Positions 651-49,182 of a stretch of DNA of 49,182 bases are shown piece by piece. The first letter of the stretch is position 1; the number at the start of each line of letters is the position of its first letter. The DNA is from a virus. The translations under genes were made by a program, and so were the position numbers. The notes below the pieces were generated by a model, which was given only the letters and a program-made list of their open reading frames with translations, was not told where the DNA came from and ran no database searches. The stretch lies in the IMG/VR virus record IMGVR_UViG_3300009964_000008, positions 1-49,182 of that record, one strand, 5' to 3'.

Positions 651-714
651 TGGTGAGCCGGTTAGGAATTGAACCTAACCACCGCGCGGGATGCGCAGCC
701 CATTCTAGCGGCCC
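651..714 (-). ncRNA. tRNA-like element A (no D stem, non-canonical anticodon-type loop, encoded CCA)
   Basis: RNA sense: GGGCCGC TA GAATGGG CTGCG-CATCCCG-CGCGG TGG TTAGG-TTCAATT-CCTAA CCGGCTC A CCA. It has a 6-bp acceptor stem with G2-U71, U8-A9, a canonical T-arm, and discriminator A plus CCA, followed by ATTTTT. Only 64 nt, with no D stem and A rather than U at loop position 33. Confidence 0.5.
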
Positions 715-781
715 CTAACGTATGCGCCGCGCCTATTGTTGTGACCTAACCAACAGCTTCAGCGCCTTGCATCGTAGCCGA

Positions 782-6664: not shown

Positions 6665-6750
6665 CCCCTTGTGGCGAAATGGCATACGCAGCGCACTCAA
6701 AATGCGCCGCCCGCACGGGCATGTGAGTTCGACTCTCACCGAGGGGACCA
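6665..6750 (+). tRNA. tRNA-Leu (anticodon CAA), class II, CCA encoded
   Basis: Acceptor CCCCTTG/CGAGGGG (one G-U). Anticodon arm GCGCA-CTCAAAA-TGCGC. Long variable arm GCCC-GCAC-GGGC. T-arm GTGAG-TTCGACT-CTCAC. Discriminator A plus CCA. Confidence 0.9.
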
Positions 6751-6913
6751 CCGAGCACCGGACGATGCTGGATGATTAGGTGTATAAACCTGCCGCTCTG
6801 ATCAAGCGGCCGTGCCGGTTGCCGTGACGGGGGTCACGTGCGGGGTAGCACCCTAGGGCTGACAATTTTTGTGTGATGGTTTTTGTTTCGTCAGTCAACA
6901 GCACCCCTTCTAA

Positions 6914-6986
6914 CGGAATGTAGCGCAGTAGGTAGCGCACCTGGTTTGGGACCAGGGGGCCGTGAGTTCGAGTCTCACCATTCCGA
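6914..6986 (+). tRNA. tRNA-Pro (anticodon TGG)
   Basis: Perfect cloverleaf: CGGAATG TA GCGC-AGTAGGTA-GCGC A CCTGG-TTTGGGA-CCAGG GGGCC GTGAG-TTCGAGT-CTCAC CATTCCG A. Confidence 0.95.
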
Positions 6987-7046
6987 CGTTGCATACGCGT
7001 GTGTAACACCTAGTTCCCAGGTGTCCTCCGGGACTACCTGGGTTTA

Positions 7047-7117
7047 TCCCAGATAGTGTAATGGCAGCATGGCAGGTTTTGGCCCTGTCGGACTAGGTTC
7101 GAGTCCTAGTCTGGGAG
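7047..7117 (+). tRNA. tRNA-Gln (anticodon TTG)
   Basis: Acceptor TCCCAGA/TCTGGGA. Anticodon arm GCAGG-TTTTGGC-CCTGT. T-arm CTAGG-TTCGAGT-CCTAG. Confidence 0.85.
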
Positions 7118-7204
7118 CGCTTGACGATGAGGTTGCTCGATAGCACAAAGTGTCACGACCAAGACACCCCCATCGAACGGTTGGGTCACCCTGGTCAGGT
7201 GGCA

Positions 7205-7276
7205 AGCTGCTTAGTGTTAGGGGTTCAGCACGCTGAGTAAGATTCAGAGGGGCAGGTTCGAGTCCTGTAGCAGCAC
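7205..7276 (+). tRNA. Atypical tRNA or pseudo-tRNA (apparent anticodon AAG, short variable region)
   Basis: T-arm GCAGG-TTCGAGT-CCTGT. Acceptor is 6 bp plus an A1-A72 mismatch. U8-A9 present. Anticodon stem is only 4 bp with loop GTAAGAT. There is no long variable arm, although AAG would read Leu codons. Confidence 0.4.
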
Positions 7277-14736: not shown

Positions 14737-16244
14737 TGCTGCCTTTCGGTGCTGTCGCTAAGAAGTTTTCTGATGCCCAGCGTCTTGAAGTGTGGCGTAA
14801 TAACCCTGCCAAGTGGGCTGAGGACCACGGCCTGTTCATGTGGTCTAAGCAGCGTGAAGTTTCACAGTCTGTAGTCGATCACCAGAAAACCCTTGTGGTT
14901 ACTGGCAATGGCGTGGGAAAATCACGTTTGTCAGCTACCCTTGTCAACTGGTGGGTAGACACTCATCCTGTCGATGATACGACAGTCGTCACGACGGCGA
15001 CAAACTGGAAACAGGTCCGCAACGTCCTGTGGAAAGAAATACCCCGTGTCAAGGCTGACGCTGGCATTGGTGGCAAGGTTAACGCCGATGCAACGTGGAA
15101 GATGGGAGATCGACAAGACCCTATCGCTTTCGGTATGAAGCCGGACGATAAGGACGAGTCGGGCTTTCAGGGTGTCCACGACCAGTACGTCTTAGTGATT
15201 ATGGATGAGGCTGGCGGTATCTCCAAGGAAATCTTCACCGCTGCGGACGCAATCACGACAAATAAGTACGCTCGCATCTTGGCTATCGCTAACCCTAACG
15301 ACCCGTCGTGTTACATGGCCGAGGTTTACAAGCGGGAAATGCGCCTGAAGCCAGAAGAGCGCTCCTGGAACATCATCCAGTTCGGTGCATATGACACACC
15401 TAATTTCACGGGTGAAGTCGTACCTATCGAGGTTGCGACTCGTCTTGTGCAGGTTGACTGGGTTGAGGCACGTAAGAAGGAATGGGGCGAGGATGACCCT
15501 CGTTTCGTGGCGCGTGTCCTCGGTGAGTTCCCCGACGTGTCCGATGATGGTTTGTTCAACATGGGCCGCGTCATGCAGTCGATGGAGGCATACGACACTT
15601 CTGAGCCTGATGAGGGGATGCCGATTGTTCTCGGTGTTGACGTTGCCCGTTATGGTTCCGACAGCTCAGTGATCGTATCTAACCAAGGTGGGTACATCCG
15701 TATTCATGGGCGTTACCAGGGATTGAATGGTCCTGAGCTGGCTCGTAAGGTTGGTGAGCTGGCAGTCGAACTCGGGGCTGTCGAGATTCGTATTGACGCT
15801 ATTGGTGTCGGCGCATCCGTTCTCGACAGTATCTACAACTTCGTGCCTGCTGACATTTCTGTCATTGGTATTCACGGTAACGCAAAGTCTGGGGATAGCA
15901 CGAAGTGGTACAACTATCGTGCTGCTATGTACGATCAGTTCGCTAAGGCTGTCGCTGATGGTCGTGTCTTCCTGCCGGATGATGATGAGCTGCATAACGA
16001 GATTGCTTCGATTAAGTACGAGTATCGTGGGTCAGCAATGCTTATCGAATCGAAGGAGAATATGCGTAAGCGTGGCATTAAGTCGCCTGACGTTCTTGAT
16101 GCTGTCATTTATGCGTACCAGAATATTGGGGCGATTATGGCTGGTGATTCGGAAGGTCAGTATTATTCGCCGGATGATCTGCTTGAAGAAGATGACCTCT
16201 TGGACTCCATGTTCGAGGAAGAGTTGTCTGTATTTTTAGCATGA
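14736..16244 (+). CDS. Terminase large subunit
   Basis: Walker A TGNGVGKS, Walker B VLVIMDEAG, C-terminal nuclease-type acidic residues, and position before the portal gene. Confidence 0.85.
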   Translation: MLPFGAVAKKFSDAQRLEVWRNNPAKWAEDHGLFMWSKQREVSQSVVDHQKTLVVTGNGVGKSRLSATLVNWWVDTHPVDDTTVVTTATNWKQVRNVLWKEIPRVKADAGIGGKVNADATWKMGDRQDPIAFGMKPDDKDESGFQGVHDQYVLVIMDEAGGISKEIFTAADAITTNKYARILAIANPNDPSCYMAEVYKREMRLKPEERSWNIIQFGAYDTPNFTGEVVPIEVATRLVQVDWVEARKKEWGEDDPRFVARVLGEFPDVSDDGLFNMGRVMQSMEAYDTSEPDEGMPIVLGVDVARYGSDSSVIVSNQGGYIRIHGRYQGLNGPELARKVGELAVELGAVEIRIDAIGVGASVLDSIYNFVPADISVIGIHGNAKSGDSTKWYNYRAAMYDQFAKAVADGRVFLPDDDELHNEIASIKYEYRGSAMLIESKENMRKRGIKSPDVLDAVIYAYQNIGAIMAGDSEGQYYSPDDLLEEDDLLDSMFEEELSVFLA

Positions 16245-38227: not shown

Positions 38228-38248
38228 TGCTCTCCTTTCTGCTTGTAT

Positions 38249-38277
38249 ATAGTACGGCGGGCCGCACCCAGTGTCAA
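38249..38277 (-). promoter_or_regulatory. Promoter TTGACA-17-TACTAT interleaved with an 11-bp hairpin
   Basis: rc of 38272-38277 is TTGACA and rc of 38249-38254 is TACTAT. Confidence 0.55.
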
Positions 38278-38290
38278 GATGCGGCCCGCC
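38256..38290 (-). terminator. GC-rich 11-bp stem-loop after the SSB-like gene (no U-run)
   Basis: GGCGGGCCGCA(38256-38266)/TGCGGCCCGCC(38280-38290). The loop contains the -35 box. Confidence 0.4.
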
Positions 38291-38299
38291 TAGTGAAGA

Positions 38300-46574: not shown

Positions 46575-46826
46575 TTACTCACTTTCTGTAAAGTAGATTA
46601 CGTCTTCCAAGTAATTGACAGCGTTGTCCATTACGTAACTTTCCCATTCATCGTGATTATCAGGGTTCCCACCGTCTTCCAGATAATTATCCCACAATGC
46701 GTCTTCAATATCGCAATTATTGAACTTTCGTCCCTTGTAGTGCAAGATAGGGTCACTTTGGGAACCACACCACTCGAAACCAATATCGGGGATACCATAC
46801 CAATTATGCAACATGCTAATTCTCAC
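46575..46826 (-). CDS. Hypothetical acidic protein
   Basis: ORF-track ORF with ATGA overlap. Confidence 0.6.
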   Translation of the reverse strand: MRISMLHNWYGIPDIGFEWCGSQSDPILHYKGRKFNNCDIEDALWDNYLEDGGNPDNHDEWESYVMDNAVNYLEDVIYFTESE

Positions 46827-47287
46827 TTTCCACTAGGTTTGATTAGACAACTTTCGGTGTAAACGTCCAATACGTCGCAACCATCTAGCAGCCACGCGGC
46901 ATTGTCGATATCGCCGTCCCATTCTTCAATAGGGACACATTTCCAACCCTCGCTAACGATAATATCGTCAACAACATAACCGAGTGCGTCTGCCACACAT
47001 TCAGCCATTGCAGAGATACGGGCATTGGCAATCATTGCGCGCCTACGCGCCGGGTTACGCTCCATGTCATAGTTAGGTTCAAGGTATTCCCATTCATCGG
47101 GACGGCCCATTTTGTCCCACGCGAGGAACACATTAGCATCGTTGCACCAACCACCCGTGAGAGTGCACACTTCGTCCCAGATATCGCTACCGAAAACACT
47201 ACCGTTGATAACGTCCGCTGCAAATTCAACAGTGAGTTCAGGGTAAATGAGGGCCTTTGCGAGCTTGTAAGCGTACTCATTGCACAT
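46823..47287 (-). CDS. Hypothetical acidic Cys/Trp-rich protein
   Basis: RBS GAAAGG. First gene after tRNA-like element B. Confidence 0.65.
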   Translation of the reverse strand: MCNEYAYKLAKALIYPELTVEFAADVINGSVFGSDIWDEVCTLTGGWCNDANVFLAWDKMGRPDEWEYLEPNYDMERNPARRRAMIANARISAMAECVADALGYVVDDIIVSEGWKCVPIEEWDGDIDNAAWLLDGCDVLDVYTESCLIKPSGK

Positions 47288-47335
47288 GGTTCTACCTTTC
47301 GGTTTGTTGTTCGCTAACCACCTTGGTTAGCGTAG

Positions 47336-47385
47336 TTCCCTAGGCACGGATCGAACGTGCATTAAACCTACCATTAGGCTAGGGA
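47336..47385 (-). ncRNA. tRNA-like element B (acceptor stem + D-like hairpin + T-arm, no anticodon arm)
   Basis: RNA sense: TCCCTAG CCTA-ATGG-TAGG TTTAAT GCACG-TTCGATC-CGTGC CTAGGGA A. It has a perfect 7-bp acceptor stem and a canonical T-loop. Confidence 0.55.
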
Positions 47386-47400
47386 TACCCTTTCTAGGGG

Positions 47401-47601
47401 CTAGTATTCTTCCAGAATGAGAACACAGTCACCAGACACTAGCGCGTCATAAACAGGCCCTATCTTATCAATACGCCCTTCGATTGTCTTGGTAACCAGT
47501 GGTTCACCAAGTGTCGCCGCATCCTTGCGCAGTGCGTCAATATGGGCTTCAAGCGCGATACGGATAAAGTCCATCTGTTCCCAGGTCAGTTCCATTGTCA
47601 C
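47401..47601 (-). CDS. Hypothetical protein
   Basis: GTG overlaps the upstream TGA (GTGA); alternative ATG at 47595. Confidence 0.6.
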   Translation of the reverse strand: MTMELTWEQMDFIRIALEAHIDALRKDAATLGEPLVTKTIEGRIDKIGPVYDALVSGDCVLILEEY

Positions 47602-47777: not shown

Positions 47778-47832
47778 TTGAGTTGTCTCGCTTTCTGTTT
47801 GTTATTTGCTTAGGCTGTTTGCCTATGACTAA

Positions 47833-47861
47833 ATAGTAGCTTGGTTGTGAGTTGCTGTCAA
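47833..47861 (-). promoter_or_regulatory. Leftward promoter P3: TTGACA-17-TACTAT
   Basis: rc of 47856-47861 is TTGACA and rc of 47833-47838 is TACTAT. Downstream TTTAGTCATAGGCAA resembles P1 and P2. Confidence 0.65.
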
Positions 47862-47865
47862 GTTG

Positions 47866-48228
47866 TCAGAGTGTGTTGTGCATCACGGGCACTAGCGTTG
47901 CGTTCGGCTCAATGCACGCAGAATACGCGCGCATACTCTCGAAAGTCTGCCAGTCAGGGCGCATGTTGTCCCGCCACATGCTGATAATCTTCCCAATGAC
48001 ACGTTTCTCATGGGGCGTGAGTGTCACATCCTTGTAAACGTAGACAGCGCCGCTGGGATTAAACTTGAAGATAATTTCGGTGGTATCCTCCCTAGCTACC
48101 CAGTAGCTAATCCAATTGCGCGCTAGGTCATTGTGATTCATCGTGAGATACAACTTAGAACCAAGTTGCACAGACTCGCCAATGATCTGGTTAGGATACA
48201 CCGACAACAGGGCGTTGTTGATAGTCAT
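47866..48228 (-). CDS. Hypothetical protein
   Basis: ATG at 48228 in TAAAATG with the upstream stop. The ORF-track start 48432 overlaps the upstream gene. Confidence 0.6.
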   Translation of the reverse strand: MTINNALLSVYPNQIIGESVQLGSKLYLTMNHNDLARNWISYWVAREDTTEIIFKFNPSGAVYVYKDVTLTPHEKRVIGKIISMWRDNMRPDWQTFESMRAYSACIEPNATLVPVMHNTL

Positions 48229-48947: not shown

Positions 48948-48998
48948 TTCCCCCGGTTGGAATTGAACCAACCTTGACACTCACCATTAAGCGGGGGA
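48948..48998 (-). ncRNA. tRNA-like element C (acceptor stem + D-like hairpin + T-arm, no anticodon arm)
   Basis: RNA sense: TCCCCCG CTTA-ATGG-TGAG TGTCAAG GTTGG-TTCAATT-CCAAC CGGGGGA A. It has a perfect 7-bp acceptor stem and a canonical T-loop. Confidence 0.55.
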
Positions 48999-49012: not shown

Positions 49013-49182
49013 TTAGTCTTCGTACGTGTAATTCACAATCTCGCGCGGGCCGGTGTAATAGGCGAACTTGTAAATGATGCGCTCGCTTCCATCGGGACTA
49101 GGGACAGTCACACTCACGGGTAGGTACCCGTGCATGGTGTAGGCATAACCGCGCCGCTCACCCGGGAACTGTGCGTCAAAAA
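49013..49182 (-). CDS. 3' portion of the wrap-around gene (49056-49182 duplicates 1-127)
   Basis: Same frame as 1..251(-). Ends ...YTGPREIVNYTYED with TAA at 49015-49013. Confidence 0.6.
   Translation of the reverse strand, partial: FDAQFPGERRGYAYTMHGYLPVSVTVPSPDGSERIIYKFAYYTGPREIVNYTYED
49056..49182. repeat. Terminal direct repeat, copy 2 (identical to 1-127)
   Basis: Exact duplicate of the window start. Confidence 0.95.

Follow-up and report, generated by a model that had tools for sequence, protein, structure and literature searches.

IMG/VR virus record IMGVR_UViG_3300009964_000008, analysed here over its whole length of 49,182 nucleotides (nt) and called the window below, is a complete tailed-phage genome of about 49 kb. 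In a leftward operon on its minus strand, the spacer between a 66-aa and a 154-aa open reading frame (ORF) contains element B, a 50-nt RNA element that resembles the acceptor, T arm and elbow of a tRNA and has neither an anticodon arm nor a CCA end. Covariation and conservation within a family of similar phage elements strongly support both selection on this fold and its reading as a mimic of the upper half of a tRNA. What is observed directly comprises the fold and its conservation, its restriction to spacers and to the gene strand, and the flanking hairpins. The features of the locus, listed 5′ to 3′ on the minus strand, are the following.

47401..47601, minus strand: upstream 66-aa ORF, whose TAG stop codon (47403-47401) lies 15 nt 5′ of element B
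47388..47399, minus strand: upstream mini-hairpin CCCU-AGAA-AGGG, directly after the TAG stop and ending 2 nt before element B
47336..47385, minus strand: element B, anticodon-less mini tRNA-like RNA of 50 nt, supported by sequence, minimum free energy (MFE), covariance-model score and family covariation
47385-47379, minus strand: acceptor 5′ strand of element B (UCCCUAG)
47378-47367, minus strand: D-like hairpin of element B (CCUA-AUGG-UAGG)
47366-47361, minus strand: linker of element B (UUUAAU)
47360-47344, minus strand: T arm of element B (GCACG-UUCGAUC-CGUGC)
47343-47337, minus strand: acceptor 3′ strand of element B (CUAGGGA), with the discriminator A at 47336
47312..47332, minus strand: downstream 9-bp hairpin CGCUAACCA-AGG-UGGUUAGCG predicted by RNAfold, 3 nt past the discriminator
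47300-47295 and 47287-47285, minus strand: Shine-Dalgarno-like GAAAGG and ATG at the start of the 154-aa ORF (46823..47287)

Read on the minus strand from 47385 to 47336, the DNA of element B is TCCCTAG-CCTAATGGTAGG-TTTAAT-GCACG-TTCGATC-CGTGC-CTAGGGA-A, which matches base for base the sequence and structure given by an earlier, sequence-only reading of this DNA. The 15-nt gap after the TAG, the 7-bp GCTAACC/GGTTAGC hairpin and the ribosome-binding site (RBS) beyond it were also found where that reading had placed them; the core 7 bp of the hairpin occupy 47331-47313, and RNAfold lengthens it to the 9 bp at 47332-47312. Three helices make up the element: a 7-bp acceptor, a 4-bp hairpin with an AUGG loop and a 5-bp T arm with a UUCGAUC loop. 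An anticodon arm is missing: just 6 nt (5-8 nt family-wide) separate the small hairpin from the T stem. No CCA is encoded, the trailer being CGA. The GG-containing loop of the small hairpin has 4 nt and is far shorter than a D loop, and nucleotides 8 and 9 are missing. The upstream junction reads CCCUAGAAAGGG-UA followed directly by the UCCC of the acceptor. The 66-aa ORF matched no PHROG or Pfam family. As an isolated 50-mer, element B has the proposed fold both as its MFE structure and as its centroid (-17.3 kcal/mol, ensemble frequency 0.45). The fold has a z of -2.67, and 4 of 200 shuffles were equally stable; taken alone, these single-sequence statistics are only suggestive and amount to modest evidence.

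The family of elements and the covariation of its fold

Element B is not a lone oddity: the genome contains at least two copies of a family and, in addition, a CCA-ending tRNA-like RNA at 715..651 (class C). A search with the neighbouring SNF2-type helicase recovered 64 IMG/VR loci at 71-98% amino-acid identity, and the downstream 154-aa ORF recovered 21 loci. A motif scan of the related loci gave about 80 distinct elements of 47-51 nt that have a common architecture and many different stems. Alignment A1 consists of 62 distinct elements chosen by their paired acceptor and T stems, and the covariance model R1 was built from it. Applied to the window with filters off, R1 assigned 65.9 bits to element B (E about 1e-15) and 62.0 bits to a second copy, element A; the runner-up was the phage's own tRNA-Gln, which scored 21 bits with its acceptor and T arm aligned and a 33-nt insertion. 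In total, R1 identified more than 130 copies with 84 distinct sequences of 48-56 nt, distributed over about 70 related IMG/VR contigs and at least one unrelated lineage of higher GC content.

The range of the family was also explored with sequence patterns. A first IMG/VR pattern, with fixed TAATGGT and GGGA, was too strict and returned nothing, and a later family-specific pattern returned 58 loci. Some of these lie on contigs with a GC content of 0.59-0.63 that have, in the fetched regions, almost no detectable protein similarity to the window, and the family therefore spans more than one phage lineage. In a scan of 185,579 species genomes with a pattern requiring UCCC...GGGAA ends, 24 matches were obtained, four of them real and all four on 47-52-kb contigs that represent the same phages and were binned into metagenome-assembled genomes (MAGs) of oral Atopobium, Actinomyces and Rothia. 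The other 20 (Pseudomonas, Streptomyces, Solirubrobacteraceae and others) have the wrong fold, score at most 24 bits with R1 and were set aside as chance matches, so that the family-specific pattern found no true member in the species genomes outside phage-sized contigs. A 49-nt sequence on a contig of Streptomyces sp. NPDC101160 (locus L105, 1364-1412) has a perfect T arm (GGCGG-TTCGAAT-CCGCC), a UCCCU/AGGGA acceptor paired at 5/7 bp and an R1 score of 21.8 bits; it could be what is left of a tRNA, or else be distantly related to the family.

Covariation was measured in A1 and in a second alignment, A3, made of the 68 distinct rows among 78 R1 matches from several lineages. The proportion of cells paired is 97.3% in A1 and 97.4% in A3, the pairs changed on both sides are 12/16 and 15/16, and further standard pair types number 31 and 37, respectively. 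The covariation score reaches 0.628 in A1 (shuffles, 0.200) and 0.605 in A3 (shuffles, 0.189), a value attained by 0 of 500 shuffles in either alignment, and it falls to 0.06-0.18 (A1) and 0.06-0.15 (A3) when the 3′ partners are slid. The percentage paired in A1 is biased for the acceptor and the T stem, because both were used in selecting the sequences. Support independent of this selection comes from two sources. The small D-like hairpin, which was not used in the selection, still covaries (CG/UA/AU, UA/UG/CG and GU/AU/CG in A1). In a synteny test based on the 154-aa ORF, an R1 element was found upstream in 20/20 loci that have a homologue of this ORF plus upstream sequence, within about 70 nt in 15 of the 20 and at about 340-355 nt in the remaining five. 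The compensatory changes on which the sequence-only reading had staked its proposal are present, at 15/16 pairs in A3, and its view of the element as the acceptor/T-arm half of a tRNA is strongly supported by this covariation and by conservation.

Several tRNA-specific features are invariant or nearly so. The G53-C61 pair is found in 68/68 rows of A3, the T loop has the consensus G-UUCRAYY-C over the 84 distinct full-length elements (48-56 nt), and the loop of the small hairpin contains GG in 83 of these 84. The acceptor and T-stem columns of A1 are gapless, and the stack of 7+5 = 12 bp is constant. Pairs 5-7 of the acceptor and the T stem vary freely across the family.

The R1 matches that were examined all lie in spacers. 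In the 64 helicase loci, every one of the matches with E<=0.01 (111/111) has the orientation of the genes and precedes the helicase. Family elements begin 5-21 nt after the preceding stop codon and end 31-53 nt before the next start codon. Most copies are flanked by small hairpins. The one on the 5′ side has 4-9 bp, stops 1-5 nt short of U1 and in many cases includes the stop codon. On the 3′ side, R73-C-G-A is usually followed by a 6-9-bp hairpin, often of the form ...AACCA-WGG-UGGUU..., and then by an A/C-rich stretch and a Shine-Dalgarno motif. The upstream 24-mers of 78 distinct contexts have a mean MFE of -5.75, compared with -1.57 (standard deviation 0.15) for shuffles and -2.5 for random 24-mers of the same loci; for the downstream 32-mers the corresponding values are -7.17, -2.51 and -4.64. 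Among 118 contexts, position -2 is a pyrimidine in 115, and position -1 is most often A (77 contexts), with U in 31. Purines occupy position 73, and C position 74, in 114 contexts each; position 75 is G or U, with a single C, and A stands at position 76 in 95. The highest copy number was found in contig IMGVR_UViG_3300008133_000172 (L161; 1565-6483, minus strand), a contig with a GC content of 0.59 and, in the fetched region, almost no detectable protein similarity to the window. Eight R1 elements are contained in 4.5 kb of it, almost all spacers between its small ORFs having one; a hairpin follows each element, and U is usual at position -1. A 74-nt tRNA-like sequence beginning with G lies further upstream in the same contig.

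Elements that occur in 1-8 copies per locus at the borders of small variable genes, and in lineages whose fetched regions share almost no protein similarity, could also be regarded as selfish or recombinational DNA, either tRNA-derived miniature repeats or cassette-exchange linkers, with any RNA function being incidental. Deletions between short repeats do occur. This origin is very unlikely, however, given that compensatory substitutions reflect selection on RNA pairing and that an orientation restricted to the gene strand is unexpected for a DNA-level repeat. Further, elements A and B differ at most stem positions, and copies at the same site are alike between genomes. Target-site duplications and terminal inverted repeats were not noticed, no systematic search for them having been made.

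Relation to known tRNA-like RNAs

Standard detectors do not recognise the element. ARAGORN made no call at element B, and in the whole window called solely tRNA-Leu, tRNA-Pro and tRNA-Gln, at 6665-7118. Rfam gave no match at element B either at the gathering threshold or at E<=10, including with the tRNA model RF00005 in a 121-nt search. Both programs had been suggested in the sequence-only reading, and neither of them calls the element a tRNA or a tmRNA. Scans for terminators and sigma-70 promoters showed no enrichment at the element itself.

Element B shares with tRNAs a 7-bp acceptor with an unpaired discriminator, a helix in which 99.6% of cells are paired family-wide, and a T arm that adjoins the acceptor 3′ strand and has a 5-bp stem, a 7-nt loop and a closing G53-C61 pair. 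A canonical tRNA is excluded by the missing anticodon arm and by the lack of any detector call. A tmRNA was also rejected: pair 3-70 is C-G in 64/68 rows and not G3-U70, the trailer is CGA and not CCA, and the element has only 50 nt, with no mRNA-like domain, tag frame or pseudoknots and no match to the tmRNA models of ARAGORN and Rfam. The mascRNA-menRNA family (RF01684) and the viral 3′-terminal tRNA-like structure families gave no Rfam match at E<=10.

The resemblance to tRNA-Gln, the tRNA genes carried by the phage and the existence of a few degenerate copies could be taken as signs of decaying tRNA pseudogenes or of attP-type tRNA fragments, functionless today. An attP or tRNA 3′ fragment was rejected for element B, which keeps both acceptor strands and has two copies in the window and up to eight elsewhere. 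As an account of the family, decay is extremely unlikely: 84 distinct sequences share one truncated architecture and show compensatory changes, both acceptor strands are kept in several copies per genome, integrase families had no match among the 10 large ORFs scanned (a subset of the ORFs of the window), and the species-genome scan gave no true members outside phage-sized contigs.

Among natural systems, the plant mitochondrial t-elements resemble the phage elements: they lie next to mRNAs, do not decode, and keep an acceptor and a conserved T arm (GGTTCRANYCC) within a non-canonical tRNA-like fold (PMC1920247). The t-elements with this arm direct RNase P/RNase Z cleavage of plant mitochondrial mRNAs (PMC1920247), and the cuts that make the mRNA ends have been proposed in general and shown for some (Forner et al. 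2007, PMC1920247). Their borders coincide with mRNA ends, and the small RNA that is released can gain a non-templated C or CA (PMC1920247). In contrast to the phage elements, t-elements are organellar, scattered, mostly about 74 nt long, cloverleaf-like and heterogeneous in sequence, whereas the phage elements constitute one compact family of 48-56 nt with a fixed UCCC/GGGA end, a fixed C74, dedicated flanking hairpins and a presumed cleavage. Element B has the t-element type of layout, with a non-canonical fold, a T arm plus acceptor, a position on the transcribed strand and coding regions beside it. Because the window is a tailed-phage genome, element B is an analogue and not a member of the plant t-elements.

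Animal mitochondrial tRNA punctuation, in which tRNA-shaped units between cistrons act as cleavage marks, has a layout that L161 matches. It differs in using functional, decoding tRNAs, and the phage elements cannot decode. The tRNA-like domain of tmRNA likewise lacks an anticodon arm and has an acceptor, a T arm and a D-loop analogue, and tmRNA is processed by RNase P; in the phage elements, however, 5-8 nt join the two halves, the third pair is C3-G70 instead of G3-U70 and no CCA is encoded. In the case of mascRNA and MEN-beta of MALAT1 and NEAT1, an RNase P cut makes the 3′ end of the upstream RNA, RNase Z also cuts, and the small product gains CCA. Unlike the phage elements, these belong to eukaryotic nuclear long non-coding RNAs and have a cloverleaf that keeps an anticodon-like arm. 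Synthetic minihelices, the phi80 M3 RNA and the P1/P7 C4 precursor show that the top half of a tRNA suffices for RNase P and that phage RNAs can be matured by this enzyme (PMC11143913). The minihelices are laboratory constructs without an elbow hairpin, and M3 and C4 are single regulatory RNAs and not a repeated spacer family. The closest systems are functionally the t-elements, mitochondrial punctuation and mascRNA, and structurally the tRNA-like domain of tmRNA and the laboratory minihelices. Element B is plausibly of the same kind, a tRNA-like processing signal or tRNA mimic, in a new setting and with a compact, distinct architecture. Nothing of this sort was found to be reported in phages or bacteria in a full-text literature search of incomplete coverage, an absence of evidence only, which agrees with the sequence-only reading, whose author was aware of no precedent in phage operons.

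Proposed processing of the leftward transcript and competing explanations

By analogy with these systems, we regard it as an evenly balanced proposition, and as the favoured one, that element B acts in cis as a tRNA-like signal for processing of the polycistronic leftward phage transcript and is cut by RNase P and RNase Z. The transcript itself is probably early. RNase P, RNase Z and the CCA-adding enzyme all accept acceptor/T-arm minihelices as adequate substrates, and both RNases gauge the 12-bp acceptor/T stack from the elbow. The element would retain the parts that tRNA end-processing enzymes read, namely the 12-bp coaxial stack, the T loop, the purine discriminator and the small GG-bearing hairpin, which may be able to form an elbow with the T loop. 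RNase P would first cut between N-1 (mostly A or U) and U1, leaving the upstream mRNA to end in the small hairpin that carries or abuts its own stop codon. RNase Z, or another 3′ nuclease, would then cut past the discriminator, at a site with C74 and a non-C trailer and never the inhibitory CCA, and the downstream mRNA would begin a few nt before a stable hairpin and the RBS. A mini-tRNA of about 49 nt would be freed, to which CCA may be added. The net effect would be to split the operon into units that are separately stable and separately translatable, following the logic of mitochondrial punctuation and t-elements. Under such a scheme, the hairpin at 47388..47399 is likely to be the 3′-end protector of the upstream mRNA, and the one at 47312..47332 the 5′-end protector of the downstream mRNA. 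An encoded CCA blocks RNase Z in CCA-less systems, and the avoidance of C75 may reflect selection against it; the near-fixed C74 could retain one of the RCCA contacts with RNase P.

RNase P processes non-tRNA substrates that include the phage M3 and C4 RNAs and operon mRNAs (PMC11143913). In dimeric phage T4 precursors the spacers are shorter than 5 nt (PMC11143913), and a helix near the RNase P cleavage site, at 3-5 nt, is therefore tolerated. The one-element-per-spacer layout of L161, as read from its sequence, fits punctuation. A processing or stability mark within the leftward operon had been put forward in the sequence-only reading; the strand, the spacers, the flanking hairpins, the 20/20 synteny and the fit of L161 speak for it, and the cleavage is what we infer.

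The same strict position in the spacer, together with three adjacent stable structures, would be expected of structural insulators that are not cleaved, so that the fold and its flanking hairpins stay in the mRNA and block exonucleases, Rho loading or interference between cistrons. The tRNA shape would then be an inherited scaffold without enzymatic processing. Stop codons in or beside the first hairpin, which terminating ribosomes must melt and which must then re-form, also suit such a role. It is nevertheless decidedly unlikely, for UUCRA, G53-C61, the GG of the loop, the exact 12-bp stack and the discriminator with C74 are kept over 84 sequences, and these are features by which tRNA enzymes recognise their substrates.

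Several observations weigh against processing as the function of element B. One concerns its folding in context. In a 121-nt context, the MFE structure pairs the upstream CCCUAG (47399-47394) as the acceptor 5′ strand and closes a four-way junction; this alternative acceptor has -39.2 kcal/mol, compared with -37.5 kcal/mol for the canonical fold plus the upstream hairpin, and the probability of the canonical acceptor is 0.10. The check on alternative folds proposed in the sequence-only reading thus came out divided, the isolated 50-mer having the proposed fold as its MFE and the longer context preferring the other acceptor. The gap of 1.7 kcal/mol is smaller than the error of the energy model, which does not include tertiary elbow contacts. 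Over 101 distinct family contexts the canonical acceptor has a mean probability of 0.85 and exceeds 0.5 in 88%. The cloverleaf-like alternative was dropped as the functional fold, and the covariation-supported one taken instead, because the alternative register is unavailable in most relatives, which cannot form it. From these models, a register switch in element B's own lineage is conceivable.

Other points concern the organisation of the operon and the enzymes. The operon of about 25 genes contains only two mini elements and class C, and not every gene is delimited. Natural deletions of the 5′ acceptor strand are found in L052 (6249-6291) and L040 (5861-5897), and single copies are therefore dispensable; in L052, a deletion between two CCTAA repeats took the upstream hairpin together with the 5′ acceptor strand. 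A hairpin that ends 1-5 nt before the cut could hinder the binding of the RNase P protein to the 5′ leader, and C74 reportedly lowers RNase Z activity in some bacteria. An oral actinobacterium as host is only hinted at by MAG binning, because the binning disagrees between Atopobium, Actinomyces and Rothia. Finally, the first four acceptor pairs (U1-A72, C2-G71, C3-G70 and C4-G69) are nearly fixed, beyond what shape recognition needs, and together with the near-fixed C74 they therefore suggest a sequence-specific partner or reader.

Such a partner is central to another explanation, according to which the elements are genes for trans-acting small RNAs. The freed mini-tRNA of about 50 nt, perhaps with a CCA tail, would mimic the acceptor/elbow half of a tRNA of the Gln/Asn type and titrate or redirect a host factor, with processing being mere biogenesis; a defence toxin that modifies tRNA 3′ ends, GatCAB, the CCA-adding enzyme and EF-Tu are the candidates. 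The near-invariance of pairs 1-4, R73 and C74, while pairs 5-7 vary, is consistent with this, as is the similarity to tRNA-Gln, the best R1 match outside the family, which shares UCCC.../...GGGA and the UAAUGG D loop. Up to eight copies per genome would provide a high dose, and two further non-decoding tRNA-shaped RNAs in the window (class C, which has a CCA, and a cloverleaf at 7205-7276) would represent additional investment in tRNA mimicry. However, the anticodon loop that most known tRNA-directed defence nucleases cut is missing, and the 20 neighbouring proteins scanned contain no tRNA-related family. A decoy would have no need for a precise spot between a stop-codon hairpin and a hairpin with RBS in spacer after spacer, and pairs 5-7 and the T stems differ widely among copies within one genome. 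On this evidence a trans-acting role as the sole function seems unlikely; it could hold in addition to processing. A dual role of this type, in which excision shapes the mRNAs and the freed RNAs of about 50 nt, with U1-A72, CCC/GGG and R73 and perhaps a repaired CCA, serve host takeover or anti-defence as high-copy mimics of the acceptor/elbow half of tRNA-Gln/Asn, is quite unlikely in turn. The targets of such a sponge could be tRNA 3′-end toxins of the nucleotidyltransferase or pyrophosphokinase type, or the amidotransferase GatCAB, which reads U1-A72 and the D loop.

Genome setting and significance

The window encodes an endolysin, terminase, portal, capsid/protease, tape measure, DNA polymerase I, primase, a Sak4-like protein and an exonuclease. 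An exact direct repeat of 127 bp at its ends (1-127 and 49056-49182) represents either the overlap of a circular assembly or terminal redundancy, and a minus-strand ORF spans the join of the window and ends at a TAA at 49015-49013. Megablast and blastn of the region against GenBank phages gave no relative at the DNA level, and the closest cultured relatives have less than 28% identity in primase. Arthrobacter phage Amigo, one of these distant relatives, lacks mini elements and carries two real tRNAs between primase and SSB. The corresponding SSB-primase spacer of the window (38228-38299, minus strand) contains an 11-bp G+C-rich hairpin, GGCGGGCCGCA...TGCGGCCCGCC, that overlaps a TTGACA-17-TACTAT-like motif. 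PHROGs and Pfam searches on 20 neighbouring and early proteins matched nothing and provided no clue to a tRNA enzyme or an integrase. A motif scan of the window for a T arm directly adjoining a 7-bp acceptor returned the real tRNAs, elements A and B, class C, the sequence at 7205-7276 and a few chance-like matches inside genes (for example, 15508-15573); the scan placed element A at 48998..48949, class C at 714..655 and the plus-strand sequence at 7205-7275. The other features of the leftward operon are the following.

48948..48998, minus strand: element A, second mini copy with the same architecture, found by the motif scan and scored by R1 (62.0 bits)
47833..47861, minus strand (the operon strand), between elements A and B: promoter-like TTGACA-17-TACTAT, a consensus match only
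651..715, minus strand: class C tRNA-like RNA, leader of the leftward operon, from a consensus fold of 11 homologues

Element A is composed of UCCCCCG / CUUA-AUGG-UGAG / GUUGG-UUCAAUU-CCAAC / CGGGGGA-A. It is preceded by a TAA-bearing hairpin, its upstream junction reading GAAGACUAAUUAAGUCUUC-AACU followed by UCCC, and it is succeeded by an 8-bp hairpin, a GAAAGG Shine-Dalgarno motif and an ATG. In class C, the acceptor has 6 bp and UAGAAUGG is unpaired; a 7-bp hairpin whose loop has 4-5 nt (5 nt in the window) takes the place of an anticodon arm, and a T arm, an encoded ACCA and AUUUUU complete the sequence. Compensatory changes affect 8/17 of its pairs in the 11 homologues; the 7-bp hairpin covaries and the ACCA is invariant. 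The cloverleaf at 7205-7276 (plus strand) lies just past the tRNA cluster and directly before an RBS, with a 5-nt loop at the anticodon position and an A1xA72 mismatch; it scores 30.1 bits with the Rfam tRNA model (gathering threshold, 29) only when the region is searched alone, and ARAGORN misses it. Among the tRNAs of the phage, tRNA-Pro and tRNA-Gln have the trailers CGU and CGC, with no CCA and with the C-G start seen in the mini elements, and tRNA-Leu encodes ACCA.

Two repeats were noticed in the control regions. A 68-nt sequence occurs at 918-985, in the divergent control region, and at 47819-47886, with 72% identity between the two copies, each of which contains a minus-strand TTGACA-17-TACTAT or TTGACA-17-TAATCT; judging from these motifs, both copies are probably leftward promoters of one type. 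The divergent control region, which separates the leftward operon from the rightward one, also contains at 1095-1171 two direct repeats of 36 nt (AAGTTAGGTAAGSCTAA...) with 41 nt between them, which could be operator sites.

If RNase P and RNase Z do cut the elements, the leftward operon would be, to our knowledge, the first phage operon punctuated by dedicated non-decoding mini-tRNAs; punctuation by tRNA-shaped units is otherwise known to us from mitochondria. The family would then provide a natural minimal substrate of 48-56 nt that shows what tRNA end processing needs: a 12-bp stack, a T loop, a GG hairpin and a discriminator with C74. For annotation, the elements would explain conserved "empty" spacers that tRNA finders and Rfam miss, and R1 can be used to find them; for synthetic biology, they may offer a compact module with which to keep the cistrons of a synthetic operon apart. 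A sequence-specific partner, hinted at by the near-invariance of the acceptor end, would be a possible link to tRNA-directed defence and counter-defence. Should the dual role be true, this group of phages would carry a repertoire of non-decoding tRNA mimics made up of the mini elements, class C and the cloverleaf at 7205-7276.

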